Source: an uncultured cyanobacterium (lineage in GTDB: Bacteria > Cyanobacteriota > Cyanobacteriia > Cyanobacteriales > CAWCAG01). From it: a DNA stretch of 64,000 bases. The notes under the pieces are model-generated. The model was not told the DNA's origin. It made no database searches and was given only the letters and a program-made list of their open reading frames with translations. Numbering within the stretch: position 1 is the first letter of the stretch; the number at the start of each line of letters is the position of its first letter. The stretch lies in contig CAWCAG010000009.1 in the NCBI GenBank assembly GCA_963793425.1, positions 800,001 through 864,000 on the forward strand, read 5' to 3'. This document shows positions 20,851 to 21,087 of the stretch, piece by piece. The translations under genes were made by a program, and so were the position numbers.

Positions 20851-21087
20851 ATGAAAATGCCAAAACAAGCTCAACCAGTCAAAAGGCCGCAACTCATTGA
20901 ACCTTACAAAACAGTAGATGTTATTCAAGGAGAGGAGGAAAGTTTGTTGAATGTTCGCTTCGATTTGTTACATGGAGCTAACTATAACGATCCAGCGAGG
21001 TTAAGAGTTGCAGTTGACTCTTGCGGCTGTCATATATTTTCTGGAACTTCAATGTCTCAATGTCTAGCAGTTTGCGGCTTAGTATAG
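20851..21087 (+). CDS. patB: PatB/AcyB/McaB-like protein with Cys-rich C-terminal extension
   Basis: PVKRP...VDV...DLLHGANYNDP signature; tail AVDS-CGCHIFSGTSMSQCLAVCGLV. Confidence 0.8.
   Translation: MKMPKQAQPVKRPQLIEPYKTVDVIQGEEESLLNVRFDLLHGANYNDPARLRVAVDSCGCHIFSGTSMSQCLAVCGLV

Follow-up and report, generated by a model that had tools for sequence, protein, structure and literature searches.

The PatB and PatC proteins of cyanobactin pathways have been described as conserved, dispensable in E. coli and of unknown function (PMC2854353, PMC4663559, PMC4259220 and PMC6162287, each in its available portions), and the original prediction for the locus studied here, which was made from the DNA letters alone, gave a matching account of PatB. 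Linear cyanobactins have also been described; according to the available part of PMC4663559, they are peptides of 3-5 residues which are N-prenylated, C-methylated and thiazole-bearing. Here, we report on a patB-family gene of an uncultured cyanobacterium (20851..21087, + strand; 78 aa plus stop), located in a 64,000-nucleotide (nt) stretch of contig CAWCAG010000009.1 (hereafter, the window) within a genome of 5.28 Mb. The gene belongs to a block of about 4 kb (17664-21497) in which a PatA-type protease, three precursors, PatB and an open reading frame (ORF) of 118 aa, ORF118, are all encoded on the + strand. We suggest, at roughly even odds, that this PatB serves the PatA module as a disordered accessory protein and mimics the precursor leader; its gene is carried in a self-contained cassette that has landed beside an unrelated YcaO gene.

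The gene is a member of the PatB family. Its product matches the NCBIfam model TIGR04220 (PatB/AcyB/McaB) with 79.7 bits for a cut-off of 55 (E 9.2e-23), and a genome-wide scan with the same model retrieves it at 79.3 bits as a single copy in the 5.28 Mb; the ORF of 78 residues is located on the + strand at 20851-21087, the position given by the original prediction. No other NCBIfam model and no Pfam model matches the protein, and none of the precursor-family models does. The match is partial: residues 1-51 align to positions 1-51 of the 61 positions of TIGR04220, canonical members covering positions 1-60 or 1-61, and the place of the last 10 positions (a stretch of the ...NRSYQQIKSS type) is taken by a linker and then by a conserved four-Cys tail of 21 residues. 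The protein starts with MKMPKQAQPVKR and ends with CGCHIFSGTSMSQCLAVCGLV, a Cys-rich tail (4 Cys, 3 Ser and 1 Thr) whose composition had been correctly reported, and both HGANYNDP and AVDS precede this tail. We collected 28 full-length relatives of this long-tail type, with the tail consensus CGCH[IL][FL]SGxSMAxCLAxCG; records of the subfamily and of its cassette are titled Nostoc, Moorena, Okeania, Xenococcus and Oscillatoriales, and others come from further cyanobacterial assemblies and metagenome contigs. The novelty of the gene appears to be that of a distinct subfamily, marked by a long Cys tail, within a known family.

The N-terminus of the protein is leader-like. Residues 1-13 (20851..20889, + strand) form the box M-K-M-P-x4-P-V-x-R-P, which contains the leader box P-x4-P-(V/I)-x-R of cyanobactin precursors and corresponds to a mean pairwise identity of 0.62 among the 28 subfamily members. 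We built a leader hidden Markov model (HMM) of 16 positions from 38 precursors of other genomes, excluding all PatBs and the precursors of the window itself, and scored it on every stop-to-stop segment of 30 aa or more in this genome (74,936 in total). The second rank fell to PatB (18.4 bits, E 0.0084), the first, third and fourth being taken by the three precursors of the window, and the next segment reached only 11.5 bits (E 1.3). The resemblance between the starts of PatB and precursor 3 (MKMPKQTAPIAR), which had been noticed by eye, is thus confirmed and lies above chance. Consistently, a profile-profile comparison (hhalign) of PatBs with precursors aligned PatB residues 2-17 with the leader box over 16 columns (probability 88.9%, E 2.4e-6). 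The box is not restricted to the gene of the window: M-x-(L/M)-P-x4-P-(V/I)-x-R opens every PatB extracted from 25 genomes of a 401-genome sample of the phylum, is found likewise in the PatBs of 88 further loci and occurs in most matches from a library of representative proteins (116 at E <=0.001), and the precursors of YcaO-containing and YcaO-free clusters alike carry the same box. A leader-type N-terminus accordingly characterises the PatB family as a whole and is not peculiar to this gene. It had been proposed that PatB and the precursors share an ancestor; the shared leader-type N-terminus stands, on the HMM rank and the hhalign result, and the common descent itself is plausible, with mimicry as the alternative.

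Three conserved islands are recognised in the 28 subfamily members, namely the leader box (0.62), LLHGANYNDP (0.71) and the tail (0.56; all values are mean pairwise identities), and the stretches between them are variable (0.26 and 0.34). LLHGANYNDP (residues 39-48; 20965..20994, + strand) is the family signature and the most conserved block; it is invariant or nearly so in both PatB alignments, is located after a predicted helix at residues 29-41 and has no counterpart in the precursors. An AlphaFold2 model computed from a 29-sequence alignment shows no globular fold and contains only the helices 29-41 and 65-75 (mean predicted local distance difference test, pLDDT, 65.3; predicted template modelling score, pTM, 0.29), the Atlas model has a pLDDT of 0.44, and the models therefore depict a small, largely disordered protein. 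The PDB sequence search with the PatB profile gave nothing useful (best match E 0.24), and the Atlas structure matches, all with template modelling scores below 0.4 and obtained from a poor model, were not used.

Beyond the subfamily, many PatB-family representatives (P0025, P0036, P0048 and others) have a composition like that of high-GC organisms, and an Actinomycetota cluster is among the Atlas clusters nearest to PatB (0.85); PatB relatives probably occur outside cyanobacteria. Two giant library proteins, P0089 (7461 aa) and P0118 (1324 aa), were rejected as relatives and considered as chance motif matches, their similarity being limited to an 'ANYNxP' stretch within repeated domains (7-13 bits per stretch).

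The tail itself (21022..21084, + strand) contains C58, C60, H61, C71 and C75 together with the predicted helix 65-75, and it is under purifying selection. Its mean pairwise identity of 0.56 is to be compared with 0.26-0.34 in the variable stretches, the pooled ratio of non-synonymous to synonymous substitution rates (dN/dS) is 0.13 (55 pairs from 11 coding sequences), and the 21 tail codons of the window differ from those of the closest locus, L055, by 11 synonymous and 3 non-synonymous changes. Within the long-tail subfamily, the tail is therefore not hypervariable among close homologues as a precursor core would be. C60 and C71 are nearly invariant among the 28 relatives. C58 and C75 occur together in 20 of them and are both lost in five, with single losses in only one and two (Fisher p 0.0012); as the nearest neighbour has four Cys in all five cases of double loss, these are independent events. 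Such coupled loss points to two residues that act as a pair, through a disulfide or as ligands of one metal, and not to residues modified one by one. In the predicted helix that carries them, C71 and C75 are separated by one turn.

We propose that PatB displays its own copy of the P-x4-P-V-x-R leader box common to all precursors and docks through it on whatever reads this box. PatA would be the likeliest reader, because it is the sole enzyme common to all such clusters, including the minimal ones, and PatB could there compete with the precursors or escort them, so regulating their processing. A second contact may be made by the signature helix and the tail, perhaps with the PatC-like protein; a natural PatB-PatC fusion hints at this (library protein P0043, in which the N-terminal half of PatB is joined to a ...RRGRIWA end). 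The C-x-C-H...C-x3-C tail would form a small hydrophobic unit stabilised by disulfides or by a metal, with C58 presumably paired with C75 and C60 with C71, and its Cys would not be azoline sites.

Several observations weigh against this proposal. The co-variation between the PatB box and the box of its own precursors within a cluster is marginal (mean best identity 8.36 vs 8.00 of 14 positions), and 245 of 5000 shuffles performed no worse. His61 is changed to Q, Y, R or G in 7 of the 28 relatives. The cytoplasm is reducing, so that a disulfide would require export, or the metal alternative. As to the reader, the DUF domain of PatG, a homologue of the C-terminal part of PatA, gave no binding of the patellamide precursor by nuclear magnetic resonance (NMR) in the available part of PMC4259220. 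This negative result weakens the PatA/PatG DUF domain as a candidate reader of the leader box; if PatA is the reader, its site probably lies outside this domain or exists in PatA only, and otherwise a different protein reads the box. Furthermore, patellamide production in E. coli is reported not to need PatB and PatC (PMC2854353 and PMC4663559, in their available portions), and any accessory role of PatB is therefore not essential there. If true, leader mimicry would be the first functional handle on PatB, and a box common to every PatB and every precursor makes the function of PatB testable at the bench.

A different possibility is that PatB is itself a precursor, independent of any YcaO, in which residues 1-57 act as the leader of a bacteriocin-like, hydrophobic 21-residue core that would be cut off and stabilised by two nested disulfides (C58-C75 and C60-C71). 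We consider this unlikely, although several features agree with it. The leader box is present and the protein is mostly disordered, the tail resembles the neighbouring cores in its length and small hydrophobic residues, and a cyanobactin precursor cluster (DUF5837) is among the nearest Atlas clusters (0.85), which can serve as a lead only. Moreover, in the PatB family as a whole, the C-termini past the signature differ greatly in length and abound in Cys, Gly and aromatic residues (for example CSCMI, CRCMF, GCRCAF, SCGCWGGRR and GWGGFGGMGRFY), a pattern like that of precursors. However, the tail is conserved within the subfamily, unlike the diversified cores of the adjacent precursors, LLHGANYNDP is without equivalent in precursors, and the precursor-family models fail to recognise the protein. 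The cleavage site is also missing: a strict pattern for the PatA site, G[VILM][EDG][AP]S, occurs in 27 of 41 precursors vs none of the 29 long-tail PatBs and none of 17 PatBs of a mixed set, and the residue before the first Cys, C58, is not conserved, being Ser in only 10 of the 28 relatives. The AVDS sequence that had been likened to VEAS does stand before the tail, but the likeness is weak, and a cut by PatA after AVDS is unsupported.

PatB is preceded by a hairpin. It consists of a 9-bp stem, GATCGCTGG-N17-CCAGCGATC, found between the stop of precursor 3 and the ribosome-binding site of PatB (20784..20818, + strand; -18.1 kcal/mol, z -3.5), and a twin with the identical stem lies between precursors 2 and 3 (20498..20532, + strand; -18.4 kcal/mol, z -3.4). 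As had been claimed, the same hairpin thus precedes PatB and precursor 3, the respective ATG being about 33 nt past its end, and the stem is specific to these two places, with two matches in the window vs none expected and no further site in the 5.28-Mb genome. In addition, the two start codons lie in 19-nt stretches that share 95% identity. Because the stems are identical and the first six codons nearly so, it is suggested that the 5' end of precursor 3 or patB was locally duplicated, or that one converted the other. Related loci have a stable stem-loop in the same position, from the precursor stop to the PatB ribosome-binding site (-14 to -31 kcal/mol, z -1.8 to -4.9), and their sequences are unrelated; the hairpin is for this reason best interpreted as a stem-loop at the 3' end of the precursor genes, and does not argue for PatB being a precursor. 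It may act in the processing or stabilisation of the precursor RNA. Intrinsic terminators were considered and discarded, as the hairpins lack a T-run and a terminator scan makes no call.

Less probable still is that the tail is a Zn or Cu site (C-x-C-H...C-x3-C) and PatB a small protein that regulates or chaperones the cassette in a metal-dependent manner. The tail offers five potential ligands with conserved spacing, among them the nearly invariant C60 and C71, short-tail PatBs often end in C-x-C, and a 2026 paper (PMC13266932, in its available part) reports altered expression of pat genes, patB included, after Cu2+ injection. Nevertheless, His61 is replaced in 7/28 relatives, many PatBs (those with Cys-free tails, in YcaO clusters) have no ligand residue at all, and neither a metal-binding family nor a solved relative was found, the best PDB match remaining at E 0.24.

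The cassette to which PatB belongs begins with the PatA-type leader protease (17664..19868, + strand), which combines S8, PatG_D and PatG_C domains in Pfam and matches TIGR03895 with 781.7 bits. Its Asp43, His77 and Ser239, which we take to be the S8 catalytic triad, occupy invariant alignment columns, and a branch supported at 100/100 in the PatA tree parts the PatAs of the window and of other long-tail cassettes from the canonical ones. Three precursor genes follow on the + strand. Precursor 1 (19898..20056; 52 aa) has the leader box, a GVEAS site, a linear 18-aa core that runs to the stop and a weak match to TIGR04446, and orthologous type-1 precursors stand after PatA in 11 related loci. 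Precursor 2 (20244..20405; 53 aa) has a Cys-free core of 18 aa and precursor 3 (20567..20746; 59 aa) a Cys-free, Gly/Ala-rich core of 30 aa. Each of the three has a GVEAS or AVEAS site and a core extending to the stop codon. The claim that these cores lack Cys holds for all three, and no Cys was found in the 27 precursor cores parsed from 12 long-tail loci and the window.

The last gene of the cassette is ORF118 (21141..21497, + strand; 118 aa), which ends in ...RGRIWA. Among 82 ORFs found after PatB, those of canonical clusters have FRRGRIW(C/A/S) ends and those of most long-tail loci have (Q)IGRIWA or GCIWS ends. The PatC model TIGR04447 is reached by one canonical PatC, and neither by ORF118 nor by two of its long-tail counterparts, so that ORF118 may be called PatC-like by its position and terminal G-R-I-W-A motif only; patB thus stands between a PatA-type protease and a PatC-type gene which falls below its family model. 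Among the library proteins, P0018 also ends in ...RRGRIWC.

The same organisation recurs in related loci. PatA is directly upstream of the long-tail PatB in 13/13 of them, and the order is PatA, a type-1 precursor (...KLPKQVAPVQR...GVEAS followed by 10-18 residues), PatB, an ORF of variable length and then, in most loci, type-2 precursors (...KLPIQAAPVER...GV(E/D)(A/P)S followed by 14-25 Gly/Ala-rich amphipathic residues). Gene content and order indicate that the long-tail cassette is a coherent, compact and self-contained lineage. In this cassette family, the precursor cores are Cys-free, amphipathic and Gly/Ala-rich, have 10-30 residues and lack a C-terminal recognition sequence, and PatG is absent; the products would be linear and, it seems, unmodified, and they may resemble membrane-active antimicrobial peptides. 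We also observed two short ORFs, one at 20149-20247 of the window (32 aa) and one at 1336-1404 of its closest relative L055 (22 aa), located between precursor 1 and the following gene, which both start with MK(L/V)(A/P)IQAGHVPRIS; this start has the look of a decayed leader box, and the ORF may be what is left of a precursor gene. More tentatively, we put forward the broader idea, which has the odds against it, that PatBs in general are precursor-derived leader mimics which occupy the reader of the box or deliver to it, most likely on PatA, the long-tail type adding a knotted, hydrophobic four-Cys peptide and marking a minimal PatA-E-B-C lineage that would release unmodified, amphipathic linear peptides of 10-30 residues.

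The cassette is bordered by a YcaO cyclodehydratase gene (15165..17462, + strand; 765 aa, TIGR03604 272.6 bits) and by a truncated amidohydrolase gene (Amidohydro_2; 21548..22261, + strand). The YcaO gene is intact, encodes the YcaO, E1-like and winged helix domains and is co-oriented with PatA, which starts 202 nt downstream. The relatives that form a clade with it are 56-81% identical and occur in many cyanobacterial genomes, and we inspected about 20 kb around the YcaO gene in 12 of them. An amidohydrolase orthologue of 357-363 aa was found on one side of it in 11 of these 12 loci, at 30 nt to 5.5 kb and directly adjacent in five, and PatA or PatB was found within about 9 kb in none of the 12. 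In the window, the block from PatA to ORF118 sits between the two genes, and the amidohydrolase matches only residues 1-218 of its orthologues of 361-363 aa, nothing further being matched up to position 23000. The relative L150 has, after the amidohydrolase, a 340-aa ORF, a kinase-STAND gene and a GAF/AAA_35 gene of 1052 aa; the window has no counterpart of the first two nor of the 5' half of the third, which is represented by only 480 aa. Since the amidohydrolase is truncated and these downstream genes are missing, comparison of the loci shows that the block 17664-21497 was inserted into a pair of YcaO and amidohydrolase genes, which later decayed. No flanking direct repeats and no shift in composition were found at its borders.

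Other features were noted around this YcaO clade. Unrelated inserts of 1.2-5.5 kb separate YcaO from the amidohydrolase in the relatives L145, L152 and L154, which suggests that this intergenic site accepts insertions repeatedly. We saw no precursor gene beside a YcaO of this clade. Paralogous AAA-like ATPase genes surround the locus in the window (10987-12342, 22453-23895 and 25825-27924), and homologues of the first two flank YcaO in relatives too.

The presence of a YcaO was then considered from the side of PatB. None of 13 other loci with a Cys-tailed PatB has a YcaO match (0/13); four of them extend for about 10 kb on each side and eleven include at least 1 kb upstream of PatA, where YcaO stands in the window. 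The genome of one of the 13 has only a YcaO-like ORF of 449 aa, below the family cut-off and on another contig. For a family-wide census, we retained 24 of 105 PatB loci, in which the tail was unique and the flank on either side of PatB measured 6 kb or more, the others being left out for short flanks or duplicate tails. YcaO is present in 0/4 long-tail, 4/14 short Cys-tail and 5/6 Cys-free-tail clusters; as these clusters are related to one another, the association between tail Cys and YcaO, inverse across the family, is to be taken as a trend rather than as the outcome of a statistical test. The idea that Cys-tailed PatBs track with this YcaO subtype thus fails from both directions (0/13 PatB loci and 0/12 YcaO loci). 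In four sampled genomes, a PatB cluster and a YcaO of this clade are both present, at separate places. Compared with the heterocyclases found beside PatB elsewhere, the YcaO of the window has 41-50% identity and agrees at 228 of their 302 invariant positions, with many changes in the N-terminal third. Precursors of YcaO-containing clusters have a LAELSEEAL-type recognition motif, and the pattern [LAV][AS]EL[ST]EE is matched by none of the 74,936 genome segments, that of PatB among them.

The original prediction had made PatB the substrate of the adjacent YcaO, which would convert the tail Cys to thiazolines before PatA frees the tail after AVDS, on the grounds that the other cores lack Cys. 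In its favour, the YcaO ORF is complete, close to PatA and on its strand, and it has no obvious local substrate because the three precursor cores are Cys-free and a LAELSEE-type precursor is nowhere in the genome; we judge this model very improbable, as this YcaO is syntenic with an amidohydrolase and not with PatA or PatB, diverges from the PatB-linked heterocyclases and is absent from all 13 related PatB loci, the family trend is inverse, the PatA site is missing and the joint loss of C58 and C75 is not expected if each Cys were cyclised independently. What had been observed, namely the leader, the hairpin and the Cys tail, stands, and it was the accident of gene order that misled its interpretation. 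Gene order and clade membership indicate that YcaO is a neighbour by accident and not part of the peptide cassette, and a thiazoline product predicted from this locus would therefore be wrong. The analysis thus separates two things, the YcaO and the peptide cassette, which the sequence alone suggests to be linked, and it defines a compact family of PatA-only cassettes with Cys-free, amphipathic linear peptides.

In the full-text literature that we searched, which does not cover most subscription journals, the leader box of PatB, the Cys-tail subfamily and cassettes with PatA only and long linear cores are undescribed, and PMC12639078 and PMC3610870 contain nothing on PatB. In comparison with the described systems, the protein resembles PatB/AcyB/McaB by a score over the curated cut-off, by the M-x-L/M-P-x4-P-V-K-R-P box, by LLHGANYNDP and by the position of its gene after PatA and before a PatC-type ORF, and differs from the canonical members by its four-Cys tail of 21 residues and by a cassette without PatG, PatD and PatF. 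With the cyanobactin precursors (PatE; TIGR04446, DUF5840 and DUF5837) it shares the leader box, the small size, the predicted disorder and a core-like C-terminus, but it lacks the G-(V/L)-(E/D)-(A/P)-S site and any match to a precursor model, has the additional signature and keeps a C-terminus that is conserved within its subfamily. The YcaO of the window has the same domain set (YcaO, E1-like and winged helix) and the same length as the heterocyclases PatD, TruD and LynD, which are YcaO proteins with a leader-binding domain at the N-terminus, whereas it belongs to a clade paired with an amidohydrolase whose members are not found beside PatA, PatB or PatE. Finally, the cassette is similar to the pathways of the linear cyanobactins (aeruginosamides and viridisamide A) in that its genes are of the cyanobactin type and its predicted products linear, and unlike them in that these predicted cores have 10-30 residues, are Cys-free and amphipathic and extend to the stop, with PatA as the only enzyme.

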